Assembly: GCA_051418015.1 (NCBI GenBank) | Contig: JBPRGF010000014.1 | Span: 58,101 to 122,100 of the forward strand | Source of the DNA: Candidatus Nitrospinota bacterium M3_3B_026 | Lineage (GTDB): Bacteria > Nitrospinota_A > UBA7883 > JBPRGF01 | Direction: 5' to 3' | DNA: 64,000 nt | Part shown: piece by piece, positions 2,002 to 45,559 of the stretch | Layout of the letters: each line of letters starts with the position of its first letter | How positions within the stretch are numbered: position 1 is the first letter of the stretch | Program-made: the position numbers and the translations under genes | The notes under the pieces: model-generated | Database searches by the model: none | What the model was told of the DNA's origin: nothing | The model's input: the letters and a program-made list of their open reading frames with translations, nothing else

Positions 2002-3060
2002 TTAAGGCTCCCGCCCTTCCCCGGCCAGGTATATCGTCTGCGTGGGGTAGGCGAACTCGACGCCGAGTTTTTCGAACTCGTCCTTGATGGCGAGGTTTAT
2101 GTTCTGCTGGATGTCCATGTACTTGTTGTAGTCCGCGCCGATCACGTAGTAGACGATCTCGAACACGAGGGCGAAGTCGCCGTAAGAGAAAAAGTGCGCC
2201 CTGTCGAAGACGGTGTCCTCGAGCCCTTCGATGATCTGTCTTATGACCCCCGGTATCCTGGCAAGCTTCTCCGAGGGTGTCTGGTACGTGACGCCGATCC
2301 TGAAGGCGACCCTTCTTCGCTCCATCTTTTTATAGTTATGCACGCGGGAGTTGGCCAGGTCCGTGTTGGCGAAAATGATCTCCTCGCCGGAGAGGCTCTT
2401 TATCCTGGTGGCCTTGAGGCCGATGTACTCCACCACGCCCATCTTGTCGCCGATGATGACAAAATCGCCCTTGCGGAAAGGTTTGTCGAAGAGGATCACG
2501 AAATAGTTGAAAAGGTCGCCCAGGATCGCCTGCGACGCAAGCGCCAGGGCCACTCCGCCGATTCCCAGCCCGGCTATCAGCGTGGTGATGTCGAACCCGA
2601 GATTGTCCAGCAGGAAGATAACGGCGACCGCCCATATGGAGAGCTTCAGGAGCGTCGAGACGCCCTTGGGGATGACCTTGACCGTCCGGGCTCCTTCCTC
2701 GCTGAGCCCCTCGCCCTCGAAGACGTTGTCGACAAGCGCCACTGCCACCCTGGCGGCGAAGAAGCAGAGGATCACAAGGCCCGCCACGTCGATGAGCCTT
2801 TCCACCCTGGGGTTGAGGTACATGGAGCCCGCCGCCGCGTAAAAAACGGCGAAGTAGAGAACAGGCATGGCGCCTTTCTCCACGGCGCTTATCATGAAAC
2901 CGCGCAGGCGGGATTCCGCGCTCTCCAGGTAGGTTTTCACTTTGCTGTCGAACACGCCCTGGAGGGCCCTGATGGCCGCCGCGCCCGCGCCGAGAATCAC
3001 GAGGGCCAGCAGGTAGTCTTCCCAGCCGTTGTTTGTCAGCGTGTCGATGATGGCGTCCAT
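2002..3060 (-). CDS. Small-conductance mechanosensitive channel (MscS family)
   Basis: 352 aa with N-terminal TM helices and the MscS beta-domain motif 'LFDKPFRKGDFV..G..G.VE.IGL..T'. Convergent with gatA. Confidence 0.82.
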   Translation of the reverse strand: MDAIIDTLTNNGWEDYLLALVILGAGAAAIRALQGVFDSKVKTYLESAESRLRGFMISAVEKGAMPVLYFAVFYAAAGSMYLNPRVERLIDVAGLVILCFFAARVAVALVDNVFEGEGLSEEGARTVKVIPKGVSTLLKLSIWAVAVIFLLDNLGFDITTLIAGLGIGGVALALASQAILGDLFNYFVILFDKPFRKGDFVIIGDKMGVVEYIGLKATRIKSLSGEEIIFANTDLANSRVHNYKKMERRRVAFRIGVTYQTPSEKLARIPGVIRQIIEGLEDTVFDRAHFFSYGDFALVFEIVYYVIGADYNKYMDIQQNINLAIKDEFEKLGVEFAYPTQTIYLAGEGREP

Positions 3061-3156
3061 GTCCCGCCCTCCTATCCGGCAGTATCCAAGACTGGCCTAT
3101 TCTAAGTCCCGCCGCGGCGTCTGTTCAAGAACGTCCAGCGCTCCGGGGTGTTTTTC

Positions 3157-4182
3157 TCAGCTTATGACCACCTTTTTCAGCGTGTCCCACTCCTCCAGGG
3201 TCCTGCCCACGCCGCGGACGATGGAGGTGAGGGGGTCTTTCGCCCTGTAGACGGGAATGTTCAACTCCTTTTTCAACCTTGCGCCGAGGCCCTTGAGCAG
3301 CGCCCCGCCGCCCGCCAGGACCATCCCGCGGGTGGATATGTCATGGGCGAACTCCGGCGTCGTCCGCTCAAGCGCCTTGCGCGCCGCGTCCACGATGGCG
3401 TGGACGGGCTCCTCCATCGCCCTCCGGACGTCCTCGTCGGACAGGACGACGGACACTGGCAGTCCGCTGGCCACGTTGCGCCCGTAGACTTTCATCCGGA
3501 TTCTTTTTTTCAGCGGGGCCGCGGAGCCGATGGTCATTTTCACCCTCTCCGCCTCGTAGACGCCTATCTCCAGGTTGTGGCTCTTCCGGACGCTCCTGAC
3601 CAGCGCCTCGTCCATCTCGTCGCCCGCCACGCGGATCGACTCCGTGTAGGCCGTGGCGTACATGGAGATTATGGCCACCTCCGTCGTCCCGCCGCCGATG
3701 TCCACTATGAGGTTGCCCACGGACTCCCCCACCGGCATCCTCGTACCGATGGCCGCCGCCATAGGCTCCTCGACGAGGCTTACCTCCCTCGCCCCGGCGC
3801 CCATGGCGGAGTCTATCACCGCGCGTTTTTCCACCTGGGTGATCCCGGAGGGGACGCCTATCACGATCTTCGGCCTGCGGGGCGTCCAGCGGGGCCTGGC
3901 GGATTTTATGAAGTAGGCGATCATGCTTTTCGTGGAGTCGAAATCGGCTATCACGCCGTCCTTCATGGGGCGGATCGCCTCGAACCTGTCCGGGGTCTTG
4001 CCGTACATGGCCTTTGCCTCCGCCCCGATGGCCACGAGTTTTCCGGTTTCCTTGGAGAGCGTCACCACCGAGGGTTCGTCGATGACCACGCCGCGTCCCG
4101 GGACGTAGACCAGGGTGTTGGCGGTCCCCAGGTCGATGGCGAGGTCCGCCGAAAAAAGGTTGAACAAGCCTCGGAGCGCCAT
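3157..4182 (-). CDS. mreB: Rod shape-determining protein MreB (actin homolog)
   Basis: 'DLGTANTLVYV', 'VIGVPSGITQVE', 'IVDIGGGTTEVAII' and 'LAGGGALL' are canonical MreB/actin-fold phosphate and adenosine motifs. 341 aa. Confidence 0.95.
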   Translation of the reverse strand: MALRGLFNLFSADLAIDLGTANTLVYVPGRGVVIDEPSVVTLSKETGKLVAIGAEAKAMYGKTPDRFEAIRPMKDGVIADFDSTKSMIAYFIKSARPRWTPRRPKIVIGVPSGITQVEKRAVIDSAMGAGAREVSLVEEPMAAAIGTRMPVGESVGNLIVDIGGGTTEVAIISMYATAYTESIRVAGDEMDEALVRSVRKSHNLEIGVYEAERVKMTIGSAAPLKKRIRMKVYGRNVASGLPVSVVLSDEDVRRAMEEPVHAIVDAARKALERTTPEFAHDISTRGMVLAGGGALLKGLGARLKKELNIPVYRAKDPLTSIVRGVGRTLEEWDTLKKVVIS

Positions 4183-4188
4183 CCCGTG

Positions 4189-5652
4189 TTACCGGTCTCC
4201 CGGCGCGCCCAGGGCGCCGCCCCAGGACGCCTCCTGCTCGCTGTAGAACGACACCCTGGAGCCGGAGGCGCTCTTGGCCTTTTCGGAGGCGACCTGGGCT
4301 TTCGCTATGAGTTCCTCCACCCTGTTCCCGTCGGCCGGATACAGGGCCACTCCTATTGAGGGTGAGGCGTAGATATCTACCCCGTCCAGGTGGTACGGAA
4401 GCGACTCCACGGAGTCCACCACCGCCTGGGCCATCGCCATCGCCTGCCCGCCTTCGAGGCCGCGCAGCAGGAGGATGAACCTGTCGCCGTAGTAGCGGCA
4501 TACGATCCCCCTCTCCGCCACCACCTCGGAGAGCCTGCGGGCGGTTTCTATCGTCACGCGGTCGCCCGCGTCCATGCCCAGCTCGTGGTTGATCCGCGTG
4601 AAGCCTATCAGGTTGACGATCGCCACGGCGCCCTTCCCTTCGAGCGTCTGGTGGGTCTCCACCAGGTAGCGGCTCGTGGCGGCGCTGGTCAGCGGGTCGG
4701 TGAAAACGGCCCGCATGTTCCTGTTGTGCAGGTACAGGCTCGTGAACGCGGAGGCGAGCGTCGAGGCCAGGACGGAGAGTGACTTCACGCTCACGTGGCT
4801 GAAGGCGGCCTGTTTTCTCGACACAAGCCCGATGGCGCCGGAGACGTGGTCACCCATGGCCATCGGCGCCCCGATGAAGGACCTCCATTGCTCGTCCGCG
4901 CCGGGCGCGACCTTCGCCCCCTTGAGGTCCGGCACATATATGGTCCTGGCCTGCTGGATCACCCAGCCCAGCCTGTAAGGGGCGCCCGGCAGCTCGGTCC
5001 CGGGCGTTTGCCCGGCGCCGCTTCTCACCATGTAATATTTTCCGTCGTCGCTCATTCTCACGGCCATGACCATCTTGTCATGCGGAATGAGGGAAGGCAG
5101 GGCCAGCCTGAGCGCGTCCGTTATCTCGGAGAACCGCGAGCAGGCGGTTATCCTGCCCACCAGCCCGGACAGGGCGTCGAAAGCCGAGGCCCGGGCATCC
5201 AGGGATATCCTTTTCCTTCCCTCTGTCACGGCCCGGGAAATGACGCCCGCGAATTCCTCCAGTATCTTCAGCGCCTTGTCGGTGAAGACGTAGCTTTTCT
5301 TGCTGTCCACCGCCAAAACCCCCATGACCCTGCCCCCGCCGTCGAAAAGGGGGGCCGCCGCGAAAGACTTTATGTCCTCGTCCTTCGAATAATACTGGAG
5401 CGTGGTGGTGTCCCTGTCGAAGTTCGTGGCGTGGGCGCTCCGTTCGTTCTTGGCCGCCCATCCCACAAGCCCGCGCCCCAGGGGGATCCTGGCTCCGGTT
5501 ACGATGTTGCCGGAAAGCGACTGGCAGGCCCGCAGCGTCAACGTGTCCTCGGACCCTTCGTCCAGCAGGAACAGGGCGGCGGTGAAGGCGTCGGTGACAT
5601 TGCCGGCCAGCCGCACGAGTCTTTGGATATCGTTTTCAAGCGACTGGGGCAT
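4189..5652 (-). CDS. GAF-GAF-GGDEF domain protein with degenerate active site (YYGDRF instead of GG[DE]EF)
   Basis: 487 aa. Two GAF-like sensor regions (e.g. 'LGRGLVGWAAKNERS', 'YRLGWVIQQART'), then a diguanylate-cyclase fold ('NLIGFTRINHELGMDAGD', 'RYYGDRFILL'). The A-site motif (residues ~387-392, nt ~4477-4494) is degenerate and no RxxD I-site sits upstream. 6-nt gap to mreB. Confidence 0.8.
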   Translation of the reverse strand: MPQSLENDIQRLVRLAGNVTDAFTAALFLLDEGSEDTLTLRACQSLSGNIVTGARIPLGRGLVGWAAKNERSAHATNFDRDTTTLQYYSKDEDIKSFAAAPLFDGGGRVMGVLAVDSKKSYVFTDKALKILEEFAGVISRAVTEGRKRISLDARASAFDALSGLVGRITACSRFSEITDALRLALPSLIPHDKMVMAVRMSDDGKYYMVRSGAGQTPGTELPGAPYRLGWVIQQARTIYVPDLKGAKVAPGADEQWRSFIGAPMAMGDHVSGAIGLVSRKQAAFSHVSVKSLSVLASTLASAFTSLYLHNRNMRAVFTDPLTSAATSRYLVETHQTLEGKGAVAIVNLIGFTRINHELGMDAGDRVTIETARRLSEVVAERGIVCRYYGDRFILLLRGLEGGQAMAMAQAVVDSVESLPYHLDGVDIYASPSIGVALYPADGNRVEELIAKAQVASEKAKSASGSRVSFYSEQEASWGGALGAPGDR

Positions 5653-5833
5653 ATGATAGCGCAGGCAACTTTTTCCTGATGGTTGTTTCGCTCAAACTCA
5701 CAATTGAGGGTTAGTATAAACCCACTCCCTCCCGGAAAAAAGGGAAAGCTTGAATCCCGCGCGGCCCCCTCGGCCCCCGCGCGGCCCCCAGGGCCGTCTC
5801 CGGTTGACCATCGGCGCGCGTGGGAATAGAATT

Positions 5834-6508
5834 ATGGCATACCACGCCAGGCCTCTGGAGGATCGCGATATGCATGTGGGACAGGTGATGAGCCGGAAGG
5901 TCGTCACCGCATCGCCCGAGACGAAGGTCGAGAAGGCTTTCGGCGTCATAGTCAGCAAACGTATCGGGCATCTGCCGGTTCTCAGGAGGGGAAGGCTCGC
6001 CGGGATAGTCTCGGACCGCGATTTCCGCATGGCCATGAATCCCGCCAGATCACCCAAATCCGGCCGCGCCGGGGTCAAAAACCTCGCCGTGAAAGACATC
6101 ATGACAAAGGACGTCATCACCACCGAGCCGGGGATGGCCGTCTCCGACGCGGTGAAGCTTATGCTCCGGGCGAAGATCGGGGCGTTGCCCGTGATGACCG
6201 GCGACAGGCTCAGCGGGATAGTGACCAAGGACGACCTGCTCGGCGTTTTCGTGGAGATGCTGAGGTGGATACAGGCATCCTCCACCATAGACGTGGAGCT
6301 GGTGGACGAAATCGACGACCTGCAGGCGCTCTTTTCCACCCTGCGCGAGAGGAAGGCGCGCGTTCTGAGCTATTCCGCCACCCCCGGAGGGGCCAGCCGG
6401 GGACAGATATGCCACATCAGGATGACCCCCTGCGCCGTCAAGCCCATTGTCGGCGACCTCGCCAGGCGAGGGGTGACCGTGCTGGACGCCTATGGGGAGG
6501 ACACCTGA
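5834..6508 (+). CDS. CBS-pair domain protein with ACT-like C-terminus (AcuB-like)
   Basis: Two CBS motifs ('VMSRKVVTASPETKVEKAFGVIV..HLPVL..GRLAGIVSDRD', 'IMTKDVITTEP..AVKLM..GALPVM..LSGIVTKDDL'). ATG at 5834 chosen inside ORF 5750..6508; ATG 5870 is an alternative. Confidence 0.7.
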   Translation: MAYHARPLEDRDMHVGQVMSRKVVTASPETKVEKAFGVIVSKRIGHLPVLRRGRLAGIVSDRDFRMAMNPARSPKSGRAGVKNLAVKDIMTKDVITTEPGMAVSDAVKLMLRAKIGALPVMTGDRLSGIVTKDDLLGVFVEMLRWIQASSTIDVELVDEIDDLQALFSTLRERKARVLSYSATPGGASRGQICHIRMTPCAVKPIVGDLARRGVTVLDAYGEDT

Positions 6509-6567
6509 CATATTCCCGCCCCCGGCCTTATATTAGCTGTAGGAAGACAAAGCAGGGAGCCGGAACC

Positions 6568-7572
6568 ATGACCGTGGCGGAAGGGCTTCATCCCGCCCTT
6601 TACTGGGAAAAGGAGAAGGAGGGGAGGGTCCGTTGCGTCCTCTGTCCCTTCAGGTGTCTTCTGGGCGAAGGCAAGATCGGCATATGCCGGGGCAAACAGA
6701 ACATCGAGGGGAGCCTTTATGCCATAAACTACGCCAGGACCACCTCCATGAACATGGACCCCATAGAGAAAAAACCGCTGTATCATTTTTATCCTGGCTC
6801 CCACATTCTCTCCATAGGCCCGAACGGGTGCAACCTGGGGTGCGATTTTTGCCAGAACTGGGCCATCTCCCAGAAGGAGTTCCCCACGACCTATCTTCCG
6901 CCCGAGGACGCCGTCGGGCTGGCGGAGACCAGGGGCTCCATCGGCATAGCCTACACCTACACCGAGCCGCTGATATGGTTCGAGTACGTGCTGGACACCT
7001 CGAAGCTTGCGCGCGAGGCGGGGCTCGTGAACGTCCTGGTGACGAACGGGATGATAAACCCGGAGCCGATGGAGGAGCTTCTGCCTTACATAGACGCGAT
7101 GAACATCGACCTGAAGTCGATGGACCCGGCTTTCTACAGGAAAGTGAGCAAGGGCAAGCTCGAGCCCGTGCTGGACACCATCCGCCGATGCGCGGACAGA
7201 ACCCACGTGGAGATCACGAATCTTCTCATCCCCGGCCTCAACGACTCCACGGAGATGATAGAGAAACTGACGGATTTTATCGCCGGGCTGGATCCGCTGA
7301 TCCCTCTGCATTTTTCCCGCTATTTCCCCGGCTACAAGCGGACGACGCCGCCGACGCCGATGGAGTCGCTCCTGCGCGCCGCCCACATAGCCGAAAAGAG
7401 GCTCAAGTACGTCTTCATCGGCAACATCGCATCGGAAAAATACAACCAGACAAGGTGCCCCGAATGCGGGGAGACGATCATAGAGAGGGCCGGCTACACC
7501 GTCCTGAAGACCGCCGTCCGCGGGGGGGAATGCCAATACTGCGGGGCGAAGACGGCGATAGTCGCGGATTGA
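6568..7572 (+). CDS. amrS: AmmeMemoRadiSam-system radical SAM enzyme (PFL-activase-like) with C-terminal Zn-ribbon
   Basis: 'CVLCPFRC..GICRG' N-terminal Cys cluster, the radical SAM 'CNLGCDFCQNW' CxxxCxxC motif, and C-terminal 'CPECG..CQYCG'. ATG 6568 chosen inside the longer ORF. Confidence 0.78.
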   Translation: MTVAEGLHPALYWEKEKEGRVRCVLCPFRCLLGEGKIGICRGKQNIEGSLYAINYARTTSMNMDPIEKKPLYHFYPGSHILSIGPNGCNLGCDFCQNWAISQKEFPTTYLPPEDAVGLAETRGSIGIAYTYTEPLIWFEYVLDTSKLAREAGLVNVLVTNGMINPEPMEELLPYIDAMNIDLKSMDPAFYRKVSKGKLEPVLDTIRRCADRTHVEITNLLIPGLNDSTEMIEKLTDFIAGLDPLIPLHFSRYFPGYKRTTPPTPMESLLRAAHIAEKRLKYVFIGNIASEKYNQTRCPECGETIIERAGYTVLKTAVRGGECQYCGAKTAIVAD

Positions 7573-7629: not shown

Positions 7630-7658
7630 TTGACGCGCGCCGGTATTTGTAATTAAAA
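7630..7658 (+). promoter_or_regulatory. Candidate sigma-70 promoter (TTGACG-N17-TTAAAA) overlapping palindrome GTAATTaaAATTAC
   Basis: -35-like TTGACG at 7630-7635, then an AT-rich -10-like element 17 nt downstream. This is the only AT-rich stretch in the 200-nt leader of the 7774 gene. The inverted repeat GTAATT/AATTAC may be an operator. Confidence 0.25.
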
Positions 7659-7773
7659 TTACGCCGATTCACGCTCAATAGGAGACGGGTTCCGGCGCTT
7701 GTCGCGGCGGGGCTCTTGGCGTGGGTCGAAAAAGCCTTAAGTTATCTGTTGTTTGAGTAAGGAGGAGCATCGT

Positions 7774-8988
7774 ATGAGGAGGACATTCCTATCGGTTCTG
7801 TCGGTCGTGGCGGTCGCCATGGCGGGAATCCTCGTAACGCCGGATGAAGGCTCGGCCCTGCCGAACTTCGCCCGGCAGACCGGGCAGCCCTGTTTCAGCT
7901 GCCATTTCCAGCACATTCCAAAACTTTCCGCGTACGGGCGGTCCTTCAAGATGGGCGCGTACACGGACACCTTCGTCGACATGATCGAGGGTGAGAACCT
8001 GTCCACCCCGGCCACGGCCCCCGTCGGGTTCGTGACCAAGCTGCGCTACGTCCAGACCACCGCCAAGGAAGAGCACGGCGAGAAGGCCGGCACCGAGCGC
8101 GGCGAGTGGCAGATTCCTGACGAGGCCGCTCTCTGGCTGGCCGGGCGCGTGTCCGAGAACATCGGCTACGCCATCGAGTTCCCGGAAGGCTGGGCCTCGG
8201 GCAAGGTCATCTTCAAGCTTCCGGTGGACGCCGTGAACGTGGGCCTTTCCGTGTACAGCACGGACGCTCTCGGGCCGGGCTTCGGCATGGAGATCTTCAA
8301 CACCGGCGTTCTGCGGTCCATCCGCATGTTTGAGTCCCGCAAGGAGACGATAGTCGCCCAGGGGATGGGTGTCGGAGCCGGGACGGCCACGGGTCTTACC
8401 CTCTACGCCGGCAGCGACATGTTCTTCGCGGGCGCCGGCCTGTGGGGCCCGCAGTTCGGCGGAGAGGCTCCCATCGACACGGGTTTCGACCTTTCCACCT
8501 GGTACCGCGCGGCCTTCACGCCGACCTTCGGCGATCATAACCTGATGATCGGCGTCTTCGGCACCGCGGGCGAGACCAAGTGCGTCGAGTGTCTCGGTGG
8601 CGACGGTAGCGAGGTGCTGTCCGCCAAGACGGAGTCCTTCGGTGTTGACGCTCAGCTTCAGAGCGTGTTGGGCAACGGCATGACCCTGGAGGTTCAGGGC
8701 ATGTACCTGACCGCTGGCAGCGACGACGCCAACTCCCTCTACACGGAGTCCAACGGCTTCAGCGGCGTCGCGGAGCTTGGCTTCAACCCGATGTTCGGCG
8801 TGGCCGTCGGTTACGCAAGCTACACCGACAAGAGCGGGTCCGAGGACGTGGACACCCAGGCCACGAGCGTCGCGGCTTACGCCAACCTCGCCCAGAACGT
8901 CACGCTGAGGCCGGAGTTCACCTCCTACAGCGGCGACGGAAGGAGCAACGACGACCAGTTCCTGCTTCTCCTGCTGGCTGGCTTCTAA
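7774..8988 (+). CDS. Outer-membrane monoheme cytochrome c fused to a beta-barrel (Cyc2-like candidate)
   Basis: AGGAGG-like RBS (taaggagg, 7758-7765) before ATG 7774. Signal peptide 'MRRTFLSVLSVVAVAMAG'. A single CxxCH ('QPCFSCHF') lies ~20 residues into the mature protein. The remaining ~370 aa are Gly/aromatic-rich alternating beta-strand-like sequence ending in a C-terminal Phe ('LLAGF'), the typical OMP terminus. Confidence 0.5.
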   Translation: MRRTFLSVLSVVAVAMAGILVTPDEGSALPNFARQTGQPCFSCHFQHIPKLSAYGRSFKMGAYTDTFVDMIEGENLSTPATAPVGFVTKLRYVQTTAKEEHGEKAGTERGEWQIPDEAALWLAGRVSENIGYAIEFPEGWASGKVIFKLPVDAVNVGLSVYSTDALGPGFGMEIFNTGVLRSIRMFESRKETIVAQGMGVGAGTATGLTLYAGSDMFFAGAGLWGPQFGGEAPIDTGFDLSTWYRAAFTPTFGDHNLMIGVFGTAGETKCVECLGGDGSEVLSAKTESFGVDAQLQSVLGNGMTLEVQGMYLTAGSDDANSLYTESNGFSGVAELGFNPMFGVAVGYASYTDKSGSEDVDTQATSVAAYANLAQNVTLRPEFTSYSGDGRSNDDQFLLLLLAGF

Positions 8989-9013: not shown

Positions 9014-9048
9014 CCCCCGTCCTCTTTAAAGAGGGCGGGGGTTTTTTT
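9014..9048 (+). terminator. Rho-independent terminator after the Cyc2-like gene
   Basis: Hairpin CCCCCGTCCTC/GAGGGCGGGGG followed by TTTTTTT (9042-9048). Confidence 0.7.
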
Positions 9049-9074
9049 ATGCTTGCCGCGGCGGGCTCCTTTCC

Positions 9075-9270
9075 CGCGGTGTCCATTCTGAGCGCCAGCG
9101 AAGAATCCCGCAACGGACGTGAAACGGCGAGATCCTTCGGCCTCAGGATGACAATGGGGCGGCTCAGGGTGGATAAAATGGGAGCGCTCAGGGTGACAAA
9201 GTGAGGGGAGGTTCAGGGTGACACTATCTCTTCACAGTGTCATGCTGAACGAAGTGAAGCATCTCGCCCC
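9075..9270. repeat. Dispersed intergenic inverted-repeat element family, locus A (core GTCATnCTGAG / CTCAGGnTGAC)
   Basis: 'gtccattctgagcgccagcgaagaatcccgc', three spaced copies of '(c)tcaggGtgaca(a)', and 'gtcatgctgaacgaagtgaagcatctcgc'. The latter is near-identical to 18241-18269; related copies sit at 60327-60357 and 62730-62790. Confidence 0.6.
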
Positions 9271-20397: not shown

Positions 20398-21000
20398 ATG
20401 GCGATTCGCATGAAACCTGCCGTGGCTTTCAGTCTTGTTCCGGTTCTCCTGCTGGCCTTCCTCGGAGCCTGCGCGCTGCTGGAGCGGGATTTCACGGCAA
20501 GCAAGGCCGAGGCGCTGAACAGGGAAATAGGAAAGGTCGCCATAGAGCTCGCCAACCGCCTGCGTGAGTTCGACCCCACGGACAAGACCATAGCCGTCGC
20601 CACATTCGTCGAGCTGGACCGGCTGGAGAGCACATCCTCCTTCGGCAGGCTGGTAGCCGAGCGGCTCGCCGCGGAGCTTTACAAGCTCGGCTTCAGGGTC
20701 CGCGAGCTGCGGCAGATGAGCGAGGTGGAGATCGTCCCGGATAAGGGCGAGCTGGCCCTCTCCCGCCGGGCGGAGCGGCTTGTGAAAAAATACCGGGTGG
20801 ACGCGCTGGTCACGGGCACCTACGCCATGGTCGGCGACGAGGTGATGGTCAGCGCCCGGCTTTTGAGCGTGGACACGGCAAGGGTGGTCTCCGTGGGCAA
20901 GATGGTGGCCCACGCGAGGATGAACTCCTACATCCATGATCTTCTGACCCGCCGGTCCGAGGCGAGCGCGCCGGTGGTGAGGGTGCACGGCGATGAGTAG
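20398..21000 (+). CDS. Lipoprotein with FlgO/TolB-N-like domain (paralog 1 of 3)
   Basis: Signal peptide plus lipobox 'LAFLGAC'. Shared motif 'IAVATFVELDRLESTSSFGRLVAERLAAELYKLGFRVRE...GELALSR...VDALVTGTYAMVGDEVMVSARLLSVDT'. Confidence 0.55.
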   Translation: MAIRMKPAVAFSLVPVLLLAFLGACALLERDFTASKAEALNREIGKVAIELANRLREFDPTDKTIAVATFVELDRLESTSSFGRLVAERLAAELYKLGFRVRELRQMSEVEIVPDKGELALSRRAERLVKKYRVDALVTGTYAMVGDEVMVSARLLSVDTARVVSVGKMVAHARMNSYIHDLLTRRSEASAPVVRVHGDE

Positions 21001-22189
21001 GGGGATCACAGGGATGAGCGCGAAACACTGGGCGGCTCTCGTCATGTCCGCCGTCATCGCCGCGGGATGCTACCCGTACCGCAAGGAGCCGGACTTCCAG
21101 AGCAGGCTCGTCCCTTCGCGGCCTTCCTATGGCGGGCAATATGAGTGGCCGCCATACTCGGCGATATACACCCAGCGCTTTGTCTGGAAGATGCGCTACA
21201 TGGCCGAGAGGCTGGCCGCCGGGATGCCCGAGGGGGAAAGGGAGAGAACGCCCCTGCTCATGACCACCATGGCGCCGGCGGACGACATCTACCGCGGGAC
21301 GAGCTTCGGCAGGCTTGTCACCGAGACGCTGATGACGGAGCTTTCCGCGCAGGGGTTTGAGGTCATCGAGGCGAGAAAGATGGACGGCTACAAAATCCTC
21401 GACCACGAGGGCGAGTTCTATCTCTCCCGCGACGTCAAGAGGATAGCCGCCGAGCACGAGGCCGGCGCGGCCCTCGTCGGGACGTACTCCGAGTCCGGCG
21501 GCCAGGCCATCATAAACACCAGGATCATAGACACAAGGCAAGGCAGGGTCATCGCCGCCGCCACGGCCATGATGGACATACGCGGCGACAGGTTCCTCGG
21601 GCCGATCCTGACCGGGGATGGCGCTGGCGGGACAGGCGCCGAAACGCCGGAGATAGCCACGCGCAAGAAGGTGATGCCCGCCGAGGATCCATACTCCGAG
21701 GTGTTGCGGGACATGGCCCGCGATATGGCCTATGACGTGGCCGAGGCGGCCGCGGGCGAGGCGGGCCGGGCGCCGGTCATCGCCGTCGCCACCTTTGTGG
21801 ACGTGGACAACATGTACCGCGCCGCCACCTTCGGAAGGTACATTACGGAGCTTCTGATGGAGAACCTCTCCTCCATGGGCCACGAGGTGCTCGAGCTTCG
21901 CGCCGCGCCGGAGGTGTTCGTCGACCTGCGGATAGGCGAGCTTGCCCTGACCAGGGAGATGAGCCAGCTCGTCGGCTCGACCGGCGCCGGCGCGGTCGTC
22001 CTCGGCACCTACACCAAGGCCGGCGACAAGGTGATGGTCAGCGCCAGGATGGTCGTGAAAAAGACGAAGAGAGTTATCGGCGTGGGGAGCATGACGGTGG
22101 ACGCGGGCGAAGAGAACGAGTTCGTCGCGGCGCTTCTGAAAAACGAGATAGCCGCCGTTCCACCAACCGAGACCGTGGAGGGTTTTTGA
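20993..22189 (+). CDS. Lipoprotein with two tandem FlgO/TolB-N-like domains (paralog 2)
   Basis: Lipobox 'IAAGC'. Two copies of the motif ('LLMTTMAPADDIYRGTSFGRLVTETLMTELSAQGFEV..GAALVGTYSESGGQAIINTRIIDT' and 'VIAVATFVDVDNMYRAATFGRYITELLMENLSSMGHEV..GAVVLGTYTKAGDKVMVSARMV'). ATGAGTAG start/stop overlap with the upstream paralog. Confidence 0.55.
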   Translation: MSRGITGMSAKHWAALVMSAVIAAGCYPYRKEPDFQSRLVPSRPSYGGQYEWPPYSAIYTQRFVWKMRYMAERLAAGMPEGERERTPLLMTTMAPADDIYRGTSFGRLVTETLMTELSAQGFEVIEARKMDGYKILDHEGEFYLSRDVKRIAAEHEAGAALVGTYSESGGQAIINTRIIDTRQGRVIAAATAMMDIRGDRFLGPILTGDGAGGTGAETPEIATRKKVMPAEDPYSEVLRDMARDMAYDVAEAAAGEAGRAPVIAVATFVDVDNMYRAATFGRYITELLMENLSSMGHEVLELRAAPEVFVDLRIGELALTREMSQLVGSTGAGAVVLGTYTKAGDKVMVSARMVVKKTKRVIGVGSMTVDAGEENEFVAALLKNEIAAVPPTETVEGF

Positions 22190-22190
22190 G

Positions 22191-22745
22191 ATGAAAGCGG
22201 CAAGACTCATCGCGGGACTCTTGTTCGCGGCGGCCGCGCTTTCCGGCTGCGCGGGGCTCGCGGCGGCCCCGAAACGCGCCGTGGGGCCGGCGCCGGACGA
22301 CCAGTTCGGCGCGATGTACCTGGCCTACACGATCAAGGGCCAACTCCGCCACAGGGAGGTGATGGACCAGCCTATCGTCGTCACCACCTTCGTCGACCTG
22401 AACAACCTGGCCAGGTCATCGGTCTTCGGCAGGGTCCTGGCGGAGAAGCTGCTGACGGAGCTTCACCTGGCGGGGTTCACGGTGTCGGAGATAAGAAAAG
22501 GCAGGGACATCTTCATCCGCAAGGAGTTGGGGGAGCTTATCCTCTCCCGCGACTCCAGGGAGATACTGGGCAAGTCGAGGGCGCGGGCCGCCCTGGCGGG
22601 GACCTACGTGGCCACGGAGGATTCCGTGATAGTCAACGCAAGGCTCATAGACGTGGGCAGCCCGCTGATCCTCTCCTCCTGCTCCTACAATCTCCCCATG
22701 ACGGGTGAGCTTCAGAAACTTTTGACGGGCGAGGCCCCGTTTTAG
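22191..22745 (+). CDS. Lipoprotein with FlgO/TolB-N-like domain (paralog 3)
   Basis: Lipobox 'ALSGC'. 'IVVTTFVDLNNLARSSVFGRVLAEKLLTELHLAGFTV..AALAGTYVATEDSVIVNARLIDV'. Starts 1 nt after the upstream stop. Confidence 0.55.
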   Translation: MKAARLIAGLLFAAAALSGCAGLAAAPKRAVGPAPDDQFGAMYLAYTIKGQLRHREVMDQPIVVTTFVDLNNLARSSVFGRVLAEKLLTELHLAGFTVSEIRKGRDIFIRKELGELILSRDSREILGKSRARAALAGTYVATEDSVIVNARLIDVGSPLILSSCSYNLPMTGELQKLLTGEAPF

Positions 22746-22769
22746 AAGATGAGCCGAGGAGACTGGAAA

Positions 22770-23327
22770 ATGAGAGTTTTTGAGCTTGCGGTGGCGGTCT
22801 TCTTCGTCGCGGCCCTCGCCGCGCCGCCGGCCTTCGCCAACGGTGTCCCGGAGAGCGCGACGCCCGCCGACGGGGCCATGGCCGGGAGCGCGGAGGCAAA
22901 AGAGATGAAAAAGACCGAAAGCGCGGGGCCGACGCCGCCCTCCGCGGAAGCGGACCAGGAGATAACCCCCCCGGTGAGCGGCGCGGGGGCGGAGGCCGTC
23001 GCCCCGGCAGTGAGCGGGGAGGGGACGACCGAGAGGAGGATCGGCGTCGTTACCACGTCCCCCATGCCGCCGACGATACGCAAGGTCTCCGTGCTTATAG
23101 AGTCGTCCCCCTCGAATTGCGACATCGAGATAGACGGCGTGTACGTGGGGTCTACACCGGTACAGCTTTCGCTAAAAGAGGGCGTGCACCACGTCAAGAT
23201 ATCGAGGGAGGGGTACCTCCCCTGGGCGAAGGCGGTGAAGGCTTACCACGGCCTTTATGTGAACCCGGCGCTGGTCAGCGAGTCGGCCCGCTCCGCGGAC
23301 ATCAAGGAAAGCGCGAGCGCCAGGTGA
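22770..23327 (+). CDS. Secreted PEGA-domain protein
   Basis: GGAGA RBS before ATG 22770. Signal peptide 'MRVFELAVAVFFVAALAAPPAFA'. Ala/Pro/Glu-rich linker, then PEGA fold 'NCDIEIDGVYVGSTPVQLSLKEGVHHVKISREGYLPW'. Confidence 0.68.
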   Translation: MRVFELAVAVFFVAALAAPPAFANGVPESATPADGAMAGSAEAKEMKKTESAGPTPPSAEADQEITPPVSGAGAEAVAPAVSGEGTTERRIGVVTTSPMPPTIRKVSVLIESSPSNCDIEIDGVYVGSTPVQLSLKEGVHHVKISREGYLPWAKAVKAYHGLYVNPALVSESARSADIKESASAR

Positions 23328-36294: not shown

Positions 36295-37296
36295 TCAGGA
36301 CACGATGGCGCCGCCGCAGGTGAAACCCGCCCCGGCTGCGCACGCGTGGCAATGATCAGACGTGGCTATTGGCGAGCCGGGCTCCGGCGGGCCGGGCATC
36401 CTGCTTACATGGGTCTTTTCTCCACCGAGAGGGATGGAGGCGGCTATATGGAAGTCGCAGTCGTAAAGGAAGCCGTCCCACGCCACGGAGACCTGCGTCC
36501 TGCACATCAGACCCTCCACGGCCATGGGGTTGAAGCTGTCCGCCAGCTTGTTTTCGTACCGCTCCAGGTTGCCCGTGCTCTCAAGCCAGCTTCTGAACCT
36601 CCCCAGGGGAACGTTGGCGAAGCCGTACAGGTTGTTGAACGTCACTCCCCATTTTCCGGCCAACTCCGCCTTGAACCTTTTTTCCATCTCGCCCTGCGAG
36701 GACGCAGGCAGGAAGGCGCCGGACGGGTTTGACGCGAAATTGATCTCGAGGCCGGTACCCTCCTTTCCGTATCCAAGCGAGTTCAACGCGCGCAGCGTCC
36801 TGATGCTTTTGTCGAAGACTCCCGCGCCGCGTTGCGCCTCCACCTGCTGCCTGTTGAGCGAGGGGAGGGAGGCGAACAAAACCACCTTTTTTTCCCCGAG
36901 CAGCTCCATCAGCTCGTCCTTGCTCTCGCCGGATATGGCCGTGAGGTTCGAGCGTAGTATTATTCTCGGCGCGAACGCGGAAAGCTCCTCTATGAGCCTC
37001 GGCAGGCCTGGGTTCATCTCCGGCGCGCCGCCGGTTATGTCCACGACACCAAAACGCCCCCGCCTCGCGTAGTCTATAACCTCGGTTATCGTTTCGCCGT
37101 CCATGAGCTCCCCCCGCGCGGGTCCCGCCTCCAGGTGGCAGTGGCGGCACTCCTGGTTGCACAGCAGCCCCACGTTCACCTGCAGAGTCGTTGTCTTCGC
37201 CCGGCTGAGCCTTACGCCGTTGTCCGCGAGAGCCCGGGAAAACGAGTCCCCGCCCCCCTTCGTCCCGGCCGTCGTTCCGTCCATGCCCTCCTCCAT
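36295..37296 (-). CDS. arsS: Radical SAM/Cys-rich-domain protein (arsenosugar-biosynthesis ArsS-like)
   Basis: 'VGLLCNQECRHCH' (CxxxCxxC), and the C-terminal Cys-rich 'CHACAAGAGFTCGG' typical of the ArsS family (here Cys, not Sec). Start at MEEGMDG within the longer ORF. Confidence 0.65.
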   Translation of the reverse strand: MEEGMDGTTAGTKGGGDSFSRALADNGVRLSRAKTTTLQVNVGLLCNQECRHCHLEAGPARGELMDGETITEVIDYARRGRFGVVDITGGAPEMNPGLPRLIEELSAFAPRIILRSNLTAISGESKDELMELLGEKKVVLFASLPSLNRQQVEAQRGAGVFDKSIRTLRALNSLGYGKEGTGLEINFASNPSGAFLPASSQGEMEKRFKAELAGKWGVTFNNLYGFANVPLGRFRSWLESTGNLERYENKLADSFNPMAVEGLMCRTQVSVAWDGFLYDCDFHIAASIPLGGEKTHVSRMPGPPEPGSPIATSDHCHACAAGAGFTCGGAIVS

Positions 37297-37301
37297 GGAA
37301 T

Positions 37302-37634
37302 CTACATAGAAAGTTTTTCCGCCAGGTCGCGCATCTGCACGCCGTGGACAAGGGACGCGCCGCCGCGGATGGCCGCCGCCACGTGGACGGCTTCCGTCAT
37401 CTCCGCCATGTTGGAGCCCTTCTCCAGGCAGGACTGCGTGTAGGCGTCGATGCAGTAGGGGCACTGCACCGCGTGGGCCACCGCCAGGGCGATCAGGGCT
37501 TTTTCCCTGCCCGTCAGCTCTCCCTCGGCGAAAACGGAGTTGTAATAATCGAAAAACTTCCTGGCCAGGTCCGGCGCGTCCTTCCCTATTTCCTTGAACC
37601 GTGGAAGGTCCTTCGGGTCGTAATATGTCTCCAT
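37302..37634 (-). CDS. AhpD-like carboxymuconolactone-decarboxylase-family protein (ArsS-partner peroxidase-like)
   Basis: AhpD core 'ALAVAHAVQCPYCIDAYT' (CxxC). 110 aa. 5 nt upstream of arsS on the same strand. Confidence 0.65.
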   Translation of the reverse strand: METYYDPKDLPRFKEIGKDAPDLARKFFDYYNSVFAEGELTGREKALIALAVAHAVQCPYCIDAYTQSCLEKGSNMAEMTEAVHVAAAIRGGASLVHGVQMRDLAEKLSM

Positions 37635-42748: not shown

Positions 42749-44098
42749 ATGAGATTTTCTTTCAGGAGCGTGGTCACGGCCTGGCTTGGAGTGGCCGTCG
42801 CCTCGATGGCCTTCATGGGGGTGTACGCTTTCATGATAGTCCTGAGCCGCGCGCCCGGCTTCAACCTCCTTTTCACGGAGCAGGACTTTTTCCACACCGC
42901 GCTTGTGACGCACGTGGTTCTGTCCGTCGTGATATGGTTCCAGGCGTTCATACTCTTTCTCATCCATTACACGACGTCCGGCAGGCCGCCGGGGACTCTG
43001 GACGGGCTTTCCGCCCTCGGCGCTCTGGCTGGCGTGGCGCTTATCGTTGTGACGCCGCTGACCGGCCAGGCCTACCCGATGCTCAACAACTACGTGCCGG
43101 TGCTCAACAGGCCCATGTACATCACCGGGTTGGCCCTCTTTTTCGGGTTCGCGTCCCTGGGGGTGGTTTTGCGCGCCCCGGCGCTGGCGGGGAAGATCAT
43201 GGAGAGGGCGCGGGGCGGGGAAGTTCCGCTCGCCGTGACGGCGCCATTGGCGGGGGCGGGGCTCTCCATCGTCATGGGGGTGGCGCTGGTCGTCCTTGCG
43301 CTGATCCGTCTTTCCGGCGGTGCCGGGGAGGGGCTTGCGCCGACGGTCTATTTCGAGATCCTCTTCTGGGGAGGGGGGCATGTGCTGCAGTTCGCGAACA
43401 CTTTCGGGATGATGGCCGTCTGGTCCCTGCTTGCCCTCAGGCTTGGCGGCGGCGCGCTGGCCGATGACAGGGTCGCCCTCGCCGCCGTTATCATAATGGC
43501 CGCCTTCGTCGTCTCGGCCCCGGTGGACTATTTCACGAAACCGATAGAGTCCTTCGAGTCCCGGGCGTTTTTCACCACCATGAAGGGATGGGGGATAGCC
43601 CTTGGGCCCATAGTCCTTGGGCTTTCCGCGGCGTTGAGGTGGAAGAGGCTGGGGGACGACTTTCTGGCCCGGCGCGGGCTGGCGCTGTCGATGGCGCTTT
43701 TCGGTATGGGGGGGCTGATAGCCCTCACCATACAGGGCAGCGATACAAGGATACCGGCCCATTACCACGGCGTCATCGGGGGGGTGACCATAGGCTACAT
43801 GACCCTGGGGCTGCTTGCCATGAGGGACAACGGATGGCTCGCGGCGGGACGGAGGTGGCTCAAGATACAGGTCAACTCCTACGGGGTCGGCCAGGCGCTT
43901 TTCGTGGTGGGCATGTTCGTCGGCGGCCTTTTGGGCCTTGCCAGGAAAACCTACGGGCAGGCCCAGGTGCTGGACACTTTCCAGAAGGCGCTGAGCATGG
44001 CCCTTATGGGCATAGGCGGAGTGCTGGCCATAGCCGCCGGGGGCCTTTTCGTGGTCATCATGATAATGTCGCTTGCGCGGGGAAGGAGGGAGGCGTGA
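42749..44098 (+). CDS. His-motif polytopic membrane protein, paralog A (heme-copper-oxidase-like motifs but not canonical; NnrS-like is an alternative)
   Basis: 449 aa, about 12 hydrophobic helices. Conserved His at H49/H55 ('FFHTALVTHVV'), 'FWGGGH211VLQF' and 'AH338YH340GV'. Stop overlaps the GTG of the downstream cytochrome c (GTGA). Confidence 0.7.
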   Translation: MRFSFRSVVTAWLGVAVASMAFMGVYAFMIVLSRAPGFNLLFTEQDFFHTALVTHVVLSVVIWFQAFILFLIHYTTSGRPPGTLDGLSALGALAGVALIVVTPLTGQAYPMLNNYVPVLNRPMYITGLALFFGFASLGVVLRAPALAGKIMERARGGEVPLAVTAPLAGAGLSIVMGVALVVLALIRLSGGAGEGLAPTVYFEILFWGGGHVLQFANTFGMMAVWSLLALRLGGGALADDRVALAAVIIMAAFVVSAPVDYFTKPIESFESRAFFTTMKGWGIALGPIVLGLSAALRWKRLGDDFLARRGLALSMALFGMGGLIALTIQGSDTRIPAHYHGVIGGVTIGYMTLGLLAMRDNGWLAAGRRWLKIQVNSYGVGQALFVVGMFVGGLLGLARKTYGQAQVLDTFQKALSMALMGIGGVLAIAAGGLFVVIMIMSLARGRREA

Positions 44099-44418
44099 AG
44101 GGCTTTTTTCTTTGGCCTGCCGTGACCTGCGCTTTTTTCCTGGCGGCGGGCTGCCGGACGGCGGACAGACCGGCCGCTTACCAGAAATGCGTTAAATGCC
44201 ACGGGGAACCGGGGGGCGGCGGGACGATGACGGCGCCGGACCTCGCCGAGACGGAGTACGACCTAGGGCAGTTCAAAAAACAGTTGCTGAGCGGTTCGGA
44301 TTGGGAAGGGAAACCGCCCGGGAAATGGAAATACCGGTGGAAAAAGATGCCTCCCCAGGTGGGTCTTTCCGAAAAACAGATCAAAGCCCTTTTCGAGTAC
44401 ATAAAATCCGCTAATTAG
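44095..44418 (+). CDS. Monoheme c-type cytochrome lipoprotein (paralog 1)
   Basis: GGAGG RBS plus GTG. Lipobox 'FLAAGC'. 'CVKCHG' heme site. Shared downstream 'KKMPPQ..LSEKQIKALFEYI' with the two paralogs. Confidence 0.8.
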   Translation: MKGFFLWPAVTCAFFLAAGCRTADRPAAYQKCVKCHGEPGGGGTMTAPDLAETEYDLGQFKKQLLSGSDWEGKPPGKWKYRWKKMPPQVGLSEKQIKALFEYIKSAN

Positions 44419-44611
44419 ACGGCGTTCCGCATCAGACTGGGTTTAATTTCTGTACCCGGTATTTTCTCTGGAATCGGTATTTACACGCGAGGGTTGTTTG
44501 TAATACTATTAGGCGGCTTTTTTCGCGGCTCCGCTTTCGCGGGCCCGCGAAAGAGGGGGGTAAGTCAAGGATGGGAACCGCAATGTTCAACAAAACGCTA
44601 GGAGGTCAATT

Positions 44612-44944
44612 ATGATGAGAGCGGTGATTCTCTCCCTGGTTTCCCTCGCCCTGCTGGCCGCCCCTTCTCTTGCGGGTGACGCGCCGAAGGCTTTCAGGAA
44701 GTGCAAGACCTGCCACGGTCCGATCGGAGCGGGCAAGGGCAAGCTTGGGCCCGACCTTATCAAGGACCGCTTGAATTTCGAGCAGTTCACCAAGCAGATC
44801 AAGAACGGCTCCAAGTGGGAAGGCAAGCCGCCCAAGATGGAAGGCTTCGAGAAGAAGAAGATGCCTCCCCAGAAAAAGCTTTCCGACGAGGACATCAAGG
44901 CTTTGTTTGACTATATCCAGGCCGCCCAGGCAGCCGCCAAGTAA
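44612..44944 (+). CDS. Monoheme c-type cytochrome (paralog 2, Sec signal)
   Basis: AGGAGG RBS. Signal peptide. 'CKTCHGP'. 'KKMPPQKKLSDEDIKALFDYI'. Confidence 0.85.
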   Translation: MMRAVILSLVSLALLAAPSLAGDAPKAFRKCKTCHGPIGAGKGKLGPDLIKDRLNFEQFTKQIKNGSKWEGKPPKMEGFEKKKMPPQKKLSDEDIKALFDYIQAAQAAAK

Positions 44945-44960
44945 CGACTCTCTTGGGAAA

Positions 44961-44997
44961 CCGCCGGATGGCCGCGAAGGCTCCGGCGGTTTTTTTT
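44961..44997 (+). terminator. Rho-independent terminator
   Basis: CCGCCGGA..TCCGGCGG hairpin plus T8. Confidence 0.72.
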
Positions 44998-45051
44998 GTC
45001 CACGCCCGCAATACACGGGCCCGGACCGGCAAAATTTTTCGGAAGTGACGA

Positions 45052-45080
45052 TTGCATGCCGGATTCGTTTATAATATGAT
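45052..45080 (+). promoter_or_regulatory. Candidate sigma-70 promoter TTGCAT-N17-TATGAT, followed by inverted repeat CCGGTGA-N8-TCACCGG
   Basis: Spacing and hexamers fit the consensus. The perfect 7-bp inverted repeat at 45094-45114 lies between the promoter and the RBS of cytochrome c paralog 3. Confidence 0.35.
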
Positions 45081-45181
45081 ATGTTCGCTTTTCCGGTGAG
45101 TTATTTTCACCGGATTCACCGCAGAGGGTATATCTGAGTAATATCCCGGAATTGTTCAACAAATAGTAGGAGGGGTAAGTT

Positions 45182-45502
45182 ATGATGAGAGCGATGTCCG
45201 TTTTTTTTATTTCCCTGGCCCTGCTGGCTGGCCCCGCCCTGGCCGGTGGCGCGCCGAAAGCTTTCAAGAAATGCAAGACCTGCCACGGCCCACTGGGAAA
45301 AAACAAGGGCAAGATAGGGCCTGACCTGGCCACGACCAAATACACCTTCGAGCAGTTCACCAACCAGGTGAAGAACGGCTCCAAGTGGGACGGCAAGCCG
45401 GCCAAGAGGGAAGGCTTCGAGAAGAAGAAGATGCCTCCCCAGAAGAAACTTTCCGACGAGGACATCAAGACTCTGTACGACTACGTGCAGTCCGCCAAGT
45501 AA
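45182..45502 (+). CDS. Monoheme c-type cytochrome (paralog 3)
   Basis: AGGAGG RBS. Signal peptide. 'CKTCHGP'. 'KKMPPQKKLSDEDIKTLYDYV'. About 70% identical to paralog 2. Confidence 0.85.
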   Translation: MMRAMSVFFISLALLAGPALAGGAPKAFKKCKTCHGPLGKNKGKIGPDLATTKYTFEQFTNQVKNGSKWDGKPAKREGFEKKKMPPQKKLSDEDIKTLYDYVQSAK

Positions 45503-45519
45503 CCACGGCTCAAGGAAAA

Positions 45520-45559
45520 CCGCCGGACGCCTCCGAAAGGGCGTTCCGGCGGTTTTTTT
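45520..45559 (+). terminator. Rho-independent terminator (near-duplicate of 44961..44997)
   Basis: CCGCCGGACGC..GCGTTCCGGCGG hairpin plus T7. Confidence 0.72.

Follow-up and report, generated by a model that had tools for sequence, protein, structure and literature searches.

A probable Cyc2-family fused cytochrome-porin of Nitrospinota and its candidate role in Fe(II) oxidation

A stretch of 64,000 nucleotides from Candidatus Nitrospinota bacterium M3_3B_026 (contig JBPRGF010000014.1), here called the window, carries a cyc2-like gene for a putative fused monohaem cytochrome-porin of 404 amino acids (aa). A preliminary description of this DNA had proposed a Cyc2-like protein at this position. 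The proposal gains support from the sequence motif, the protein length, a conserved CXXCH and full-length homology to the Cyc2 protein of an iron oxidiser of the Gallionellaceae, here Cyc2_KS. The coordinates of the gene, of its parts and of further features of the window are collected in Table 1.

Gene structure and transcription unit

The open reading frame (ORF) listing also offers a longer version of the gene, which begins with TTG at 7753. ATG 7774 is the likelier start, since the Shine-Dalgarno sequence AAGGAGGAG is positioned 6 nt upstream of it. The promoter-like site in the gap 5' of the gene agrees with the consensus at 10 of 12 positions. It is a consensus match only, with one site found where 0.4 were expected in shuffled sequence. 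Because this site lies in an upstream gap of 201 bp and an intrinsic terminator follows the stop codon, the cyc2-like gene looks monocistronic from its sequence. A small ORF of 51 aa further downstream was considered as a partner of Cyc2 and rejected, as it starts past the terminator and has no Pfam match. It is also called behind the cyc2 terminator on a Logan contig of identical sequence, matches no family and is probably not a gene. The Logan run SRR28149505 contains a cyc2-like gene identical to that of the window.

Table 1. Positions of the cyc2-like gene, its parts and other features in the window
Feature	Position	Strand	Remarks
Radical SAM enzyme, AmmeMemoRadiSam system	6568-7572		directly 5' of cyc2; TIGR04337, 314 bits
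Promoter-like site	7630..7659	+	TTGACG, 18-nt spacer, TAAAAT; inside the 201-bp gap 5' of the cyc2-like gene
Shine-Dalgarno sequence	7759..7767	+	read directly; 6 nt before ATG 7774
cyc2-like gene, 404-aa putative fused monohaem cytochrome-porin	7774..8988	+	from ORF list; stop codon included
Sec-type signal peptide, aa 1-28	7774..7857	+	by inspection; predicted cleavage GSA/LP (A28/L29)
Cyc2 signature, aa 28-51	7855..7926	+	regular-expression match: AXPXFAR[Q/K][T/Y], CXXCH, PXL
Haem c attachment site CFSCH, aa 40-44	7891..7905	+	sole CXXCH of the protein
16-strand beta-barrel porin domain, aa 84-404	8023..8985	+	predicted model; C-terminal Phe
Second cysteine pair CVEC, aa 270-273	8581..8592	+	tip of predicted extracellular loop 5
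Intrinsic terminator	9014..9051 (also given as 9014-9041)	+	12-bp G+C-rich stem and T-run; 26 nt past the cyc2 stop codon; called strong
51-aa ORF	9049-9204	+	probably not a gene
TPR-cyclase protein, 653 aa	9305-11266	-	convergent on cyc2
FlgO-domain proteins (three), then PEGA-domain protein	20398-23327	+	signal-peptide-like N-termini
Radical SAM protein with DUF3641	36295-37464	-	one CXXCH; probably not a cytochrome
COX1-like membrane protein, 449 aa	42749-44098	+	PF00115, 41.1 bits (cut-off 34.8); no NCBIfam match
Lipoprotein-type monohaem cytochrome c	44095-44418	+	overlaps the COX1-like gene by 4 nt
Two further paralogous monohaem cytochromes c, tandem	44612-44944 and 45182-45502	+	
Multi-span membrane protein, 415 aa	45558-46805	- (convergent)	HYHG motif; no family match

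Signal peptide, haem motif and cysteines

The protein starts with MRRTFLSVLSVVAVAMAGILVTPDEGSA, followed after the predicted cleavage site by LPNFARQTGQPCFSCHFQHIPKL, and ends in LLLLAGF with a C-terminal Phe. On inspection, MRRTFLSVLSVVAVAMAGILVTPDEGSA shows the n/h/c arrangement expected of a Sec signal peptide, with a basic n-region, an 18-residue hydrophobic core and the cleavage motif GSA/L. In the AlphaFold model these residues (1-28) have a predicted local distance difference test score (pLDDT) below 50. The ORF, the signal peptide, the single CXXCH and the C-terminal Phe given in the preliminary description were all found again in the sequence. It had, however, placed the CXXCH about 20 residues into the mature protein, whereas the motif lies 12 residues after the predicted cleavage site.

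The Cyc2 signature ALPNFARQTGQPCFSCHFQHIPKL is composed of ALPNFARQT (aa 28-36), GQP, CFSCH, FQHI and PKL, and is an exact fit to the published motif that defines Cyc2. CXXCH is present in six ORFs of at least 80 aa in the window, and the cyc2-like ORF is the only one with the Cyc2-type upstream motif. Indeed, this motif occurs once across all six reading frames of the window. C40, C43 and H44 are invariant in an alignment of 33 homologues as well as in one of 107 homologues, so the conservation of the CXXCH that the preliminary description had asked for is borne out. Since these residues are invariant and the Cyc2-type motif is unique in six frames, the haem motif is more than a chance match. 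In the 107-sequence alignment the rest of the signature is conserved to a similar degree (A28, P30, Q35 and L51 100%, like the three haem-motif residues; F32 and R34 99%; P49 98%). Among homologous loci, of which 510 were found in species-representative genomes and 80 retrieved, the signature was present in strict or near-strict form in 80 of 80, and all contained the CXXCH.

The protein contains four cysteines. C40 and C43 belong to the CXXCH, and the other two, C270 and C273, lie in the sequence CVEC, which does not match a haem motif. This second pair is kept as C-x-x-C in close Nitrospinota homologues, and is absent or differently spaced in the distant homologues P0030-P0038. It is possibly a disulfide or an external metal site. 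The mature part is rich in Gly (13%), Ala (10%), Thr (8%), Ser (7%) and Phe (7%).

Membership in the Cyc2 family

Keffer et al. (2021; PMC8406198) define Cyc2 by a signal peptide, one CXXCH, the motif AXPXFAR[Q/K][T/Y] just upstream of it, which is stated to be unique to Cyc2, PXL four residues past the CXXCH, a length of at least 365 aa and a 16-strand porin like OprO/OprP (4RJW, 2O4V). The window protein has all six of these: signal peptide, CXXCH, upstream motif, PXL, 404 aa and a 16-strand barrel, the last as predicted. In BLASTP it aligns over the full length with Cyc2 of Ferrigenium straubiae KS (31% identity, E 8e-53), well within the membership cut-off of E <= 1e-5. We therefore consider the protein very likely a member of the Cyc2 family.

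The KS protein is encoded in locus L077, the complete 'Candidatus Ferrigenium straubiae' KS genome, and appears under the name 'Gallionellaceae sp. KS' with the Cluster 1 proteins in Fig. S7 of Keffer et al. (PMC8406198). According to a 2026 preprint, Cyc2_KS is the single putative Fe(II) oxidase of KS and the one with the highest expression, and it is up-regulated when Fe(II) is present. When a search was seeded with Cyc2_KS, the named sequences among the best 120 matches belonged to Gallionellaceae or Nitrosomonadales. Global identity of the window protein is 27.4% to Cyc2_KS and 18% to P0037 and P0038, the two most distant members of the set. Published identities are 25-53% within Cluster 1 and 15-23% between clusters (PMC8406198), and the value for Cyc2_KS falls within the former range and above the latter.

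In a neighbour-joining tree of 107 sequences, none of them a Cluster 2 or 3 reference, the window protein is placed inside a clade that consists almost entirely of Nitrospinota metagenome-assembled genomes (MAGs). It comprises, among others, Nitrospinaceae OFTM379, several MAGs from groundwater and Dive96 bins that NCBI labels 'Nitrospirae'. The sister group contains the KS protein, Nitrosomonadales, sulfur-oxidising symbionts and Deltaproteobacteria. Cyc2 homologues of the Dive96 Nitrospinota MAGs have been placed in Cluster I before (PMC9769843), and two loci of our set that follow the Dive96 naming scheme (L007 and L013) fall into the same clade as the window protein. The identities to KS and to P0037/P0038 (27% versus 18%), the published ranges and the published placement of Nitrospinota homologues support a tentative affinity to Cluster 1, as judged by sequence comparison.

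With the Cluster 1 proteins (Cyc2 PV-1 of Mariprofundus ferrooxydans, Cyc2_KS and those of Gallionellaceae and Chlorobi) the window protein shares the signal peptide, the N-terminal CXXCH, both motifs, a length of about 400 aa and the 16-strand barrel. It differs from them in its host, a member of Nitrospinota and not a recognised iron oxidiser, in its separate, nearly all-Nitrospinota clade and in an additional conserved CxxC, located in the predicted extracellular loop 5. Moreover, its gene has no adjoining gene for a cyc1-type dihaem cytochrome or an oxidase. Cyc2 of Acidithiobacillus ferrooxidans and Cyt572 of Leptospirillum, which belong to other clusters, have the same architecture of a fused monohaem cytochrome-porin in the outer membrane (PMC8406198). 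While cyc2 of Acidithiobacillus heads the rus operon (cyc2-cyc1-cup-coxBACD-rus), the window cyc2 stands alone.

The family is large. A word-indexed database returned 38 matches, and every named one was a hypothetical protein from a Nitrospinae MAG. A 33-sequence profile, run against 1.84 billion, matched 4630 cluster representatives at E <= 1e-3 and 428 at E <= 1e-30.

Predicted structure and comparison with porins

AlphaFold2, run on the 33-sequence alignment, gave a model with a mean pLDDT of 85.1 and a predicted template modelling score (pTM) of 0.83. Secondary structure assignment by DSSP revealed short helices (30-36 and 53-60) that flank the CXXCH, a short hairpin (70-79) and sixteen long strands between residues 84 and 403. 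The beta-barrel suspected in the preliminary description thus reappears as a predicted 16-strand barrel. A 41-residue segment with helices (164-204) occupies the position of the porin constriction loop 3. In the model, a very short haem-binding segment (aa 29-60) is fused to an OprP/OprO-like 16-strand barrel with a long internal loop 3.

The resemblance of the barrel to general and phosphate porins raises the question of whether this is an ordinary diffusion porin (OprP/OprO or BBP2 type) that binds no haem and has its CXXCH by chance. A weak Pfam match to BBP2 (PF07642, OmpL-like beta-barrel porin-2; aa 277-393), the only Pfam match of the protein, also points in this direction with E 0.021. 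However, this match scores 14.5 bits, below the gathering cut-off of 26.2, and neither the porin families nor any other family of NCBIfam matched the protein. A better match to a non-haem porin family, named in the preliminary description as an outcome that would speak against Cyc2, was thus absent from both libraries. Identity to OprP is 12%. The phosphate-selective porins OprP and OprO of Pseudomonas aeruginosa (PDB 2O4V and 4RJW) are not cytochromes, and neither is recovered by PDB sequence searches with the window protein. PDB sequence and profile searches returned no solved relative at all. Furthermore, the CXXCH and the 24-residue signature are invariant or nearly so in the 107 homologues, with much lower conservation in the barrel. 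The alignment as a whole has a mean column identity of 37%, and the cytochrome segment stands far above the barrel, a published trait of Cyc2. An ordinary porin is, accordingly, highly improbable. To our knowledge, no Cyc2 structure exists for comparison, and we know of no Cyc2 model in Pfam or NCBIfam.

MtrCAB, MtoAB and PioAB likewise use an outer-membrane beta-barrel to move electrons across the membrane. In those systems a 26-strand barrel sheathes a separate decahaem protein, whereas the window protein combines 16 predicted strands and one haem site in a single polypeptide. An assignment as MtrB/MtoB/PioB porin was rejected, as neither a 26-strand barrel nor a multihaem partner alongside it was found.

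Seven acidic residues are conserved in the 107-sequence alignment (D116, E117, E135, D164, E173, E187 and D292). They fit the acidic tunnel that the 2026 preprint on Cyc2_KS describes for Cyc2 models. H47 is present in 82% of the 107 sequences and is replaced by Asn in some.

Genomic neighbourhood and Nitrospinota relatives

GatA, encoded at 541-2001 of the window, has its closest non-identical matches in Nitrospinae or Nitrospinota, at no more than 74% identity. The organism of the window is thus a distinct lineage. G+C content of the window is about 62%, compared to 47-61% in related loci. The order mreB, GAF-GGDEF, (CBS), AmmeMemoRadiSam radical SAM, cyc2 recurs in the related loci L002 and L007, and radical SAM and cyc2 are also adjacent in L003 and L004. 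In these loci the neighbouring proteins are 49-74% identical. Since the gene order is conserved, cyc2 has been inherited vertically in this lineage and was not acquired recently. Relatives of the window protein are encoded in L001 (Nitrospinaceae OFTM379, 61% identical), from a subsea-tunnel MAG series (PMC11995701), and in L007 (Dive96_bin1.228, 47%).

Cyc2-like genes have been noted before in Nitrospinota MAGs from vent chimneys (PMC9769843) and, for a subsea tunnel, in MAGs of Nitrospinaceae and UBA8639 (PMC11995701). These share with the window the phylum and the protein clade, and L002 and L007 also share the gene order. Both the architecture and the family are therefore already known, and Cyc2 in Nitrospinota has been reported before as gene presence.

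The radical SAM enzyme directly 5' of cyc2 is assigned to the AmmeMemoRadiSam system, as are its counterparts in L002, L003, L004 and L007. A role as maturase of the cytochrome-porin was considered and rejected as unsupported. The system is widespread and of housekeeping type, a 201-bp gap with the promoter-like site separates the enzyme from cyc2, and outside Nitrospinota it is not found next to cyc2. On the other side, the protein convergent on cyc2 combines some 11 near-identical TPR units, whose internal repeats are 59-63% identical, with an adenylate/guanylate cyclase domain behind them.

This setting, a stand-alone gene flanked by signalling proteins (GAF-GGDEF, CBS, TPR-adenylate/guanylate cyclase) and with no dedicated respiratory operon attached, would suit a Cyc2 with a non-energetic role in a nitrite oxidiser. 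Such a protein might detoxify Fe(II) at the cell surface, with less Fenton chemistry as a result, or, more speculatively, take part in redox or iron sensing, and would add little to growth. Constitutive expression of cyc2 in KS (2026 preprint) is in line with this idea. On the other hand, several divergent Nitrospinota MAGs have kept both the gene and its position, and in some MAGs there are two or three paralogues or multihaem cytochromes nearby, which looks more like invested electron-transfer capacity. In sum, we regard a non-energetic role as unlikely.

Two full-length cyc2 paralogues were observed in several Nitrospinota MAGs, either in tandem (L002, 7977-9239 and 9585-10904) or on separate loci of the same MAG (L005 and L008; L010 and L014), while the window has one. 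Directly 3' of cyc2, three loci also encode a short Cyc2-like paralogue of 327-330 aa on the plus strand (L002:11109-12095, L006:9469-10461 and L007:9440-10423). The window contains no such short paralogue. The short paralogues have a signal peptide, the motif MPN[FY]AR[EQ]SG or LPSFARGQG and a CXXCH, end in LLFI[TS][SN]F and lack PXL. With the C-terminal half of the window protein they share about 30% identity. As they fall below the 365-aa cut-off of FeGenie and Keffer et al., they would be missed by such pipelines.

Multihaem cytochromes lie near cyc2 in two related loci. In L001, an ORF with 14 CXXCH is located 2.4 kb downstream and runs to the contig end (11668-12879), and L015 has two multihaem ORFs upstream of cyc2 with 5 and 9 CXXCH (2127-3278 and 5550-7136, respectively). 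No comparable multihaem cytochrome was found near the window cyc2.

Cytochrome c genes elsewhere in the window

The preliminary description had mentioned a cluster of small periplasmic cytochromes c 35 kb away from the cyc2-like gene. The cluster exists and consists of three tandem monohaem genes behind a COX1-like gene. Two of the cytochromes c were scanned and match PF00034 and PF13442. The COX1-like gene and the gene of the lipoprotein-type cytochrome c appear to be translationally coupled, as they overlap by 4 nt. The whole region from 42749 to 46805, including the convergent multi-span membrane protein, may represent a divergent haem-copper oxidase or NOR-like module. The three cytochromes c are plausible candidates for periplasmic electron acceptors of Cyc2, and the COX1-like protein for a possible oxidase, at a distance of about 35 kb from cyc2.

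The remaining annotated genes of the window are of housekeeping or signalling type. At two further places we noted three consecutive FlgO-domain proteins followed by a PEGA-domain protein, all with signal-peptide-like N-termini, and a radical SAM protein that ends in a DUF3641 domain (PF12345, 150 bits), which contains one CXXCH and is probably not a cytochrome (Table 1).

Discussion

Taken together, the data point to a Cyc2-family fused cytochrome-porin of Nitrospinota whose job is Fe(II) oxidation, a combined reading to which we assign a probability of about 0.6. Fe(II) oxidation by itself is the likeliest physiological function suggested by comparison with known Cyc2 proteins, and we hold it at roughly even odds.

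A possible mechanism can be drawn by analogy with two Cyc2 proteins that have been tested biochemically, those of Mariprofundus PV-1 and Acidithiobacillus (PMC8406198). In a redox titration, Cyc2 PV-1 gave 208 mV. The protein of the window would be exported by the Sec pathway and haem attached covalently, after which the barrel would take its place in the outer membrane, with the haem segment at or in the periplasmic mouth of the pore. Dissolved Fe2+ would enter the pore, possibly guided by the seven conserved acidic residues, and give one electron to the haem, while Fe(III) would stay outside the cell. The electron could then pass via soluble periplasmic c-type cytochromes to a terminal oxidase.

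Several points weigh against this interpretation. Nitrospinota are known as nitrite oxidisers, not as iron oxidisers. The neighbours of cyc2 (MscS, MreB, GAF-GGDEF, CBS, radical SAM and the TPR-cyclase) are signalling or housekeeping proteins, and no electron-transfer partner adjacent to cyc2 was found among the annotated neighbours. Besides H44, no His or Met that could act as a distal haem ligand is conserved in the 107 sequences. The connection to the biochemically tested Cyc2 PV-1, A. ferrooxidans Cyc2 and Leptospirillum Cyt572 runs via Cyc2_KS, published identity ranges and published trees. Finally, Keffer et al. caution that a Cyc2 outside the clades of known iron oxidisers needs functional verification, with regard to its phylogenetic and physiological context (PMC8406198).

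The same one-haem pore could also serve a different donor and pass inward electrons from Mn(II), as hypothesised for the Cyc2 homologue of 'Candidatus Manganitrophus', or from minerals or cathodes, as proposed for Tenderia. In the Mn(II)-oxidising Manganitrophaceae, Cyc2 homologues belong to the core genes and have been proposed to act in Mn oxidation (PMC9040806). They are also present in many organisms that are not known to oxidise iron, such as tubeworm and lucinid symbionts, Sulfurimonas and Deltaproteobacteria. In the subsea-tunnel study, putative Mn oxidases were reported in nearly all nitrifier MAGs, including Nitrospinaceae and UBA8639 (PMC11995701). However, biochemical Mn(II) oxidation has been shown for no Cyc2, while all three tested representatives oxidise Fe(II) (PMC8406198). 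Furthermore, by identity and published trees the window protein is closest to Cluster 1, where the Fe(II) function is best supported. We consider another donor slightly less likely still than a non-energetic role, and Fe(II) oxidation remains the preferred function.

A broader proposal would be a Nitrospinota lineage, in a phylum noted nearly exclusively for nitrite oxidation, that conserves energy from extracellular Fe(II), possibly Mn(II), via its own vertically inherited Cyc2 subfamily with an extracellular CxxC loop, to which sister genomes add a previously undescribed short paralogue of about 330 aa. This proposal is tentative and, as a whole, rather doubtful.

Among the candidate markers for microbial Fe(II) oxidation, none is more widespread than Cyc2. 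The window adds a well-supported example with a clean, apparently monocistronic gene, a conserved neighbourhood and a confident structural model, and no new architecture. The more interesting leads are the conserved extracellular CxxC of the Nitrospinota clade and the short cyc2-adjacent paralogues in sister MAGs. The presence of Cyc2 in Nitrospinota hints that members of a phylum regarded as nitrite oxidisers could also tap iron, which would link the nitrogen and iron cycles in groundwater, vents and corroding infrastructure.

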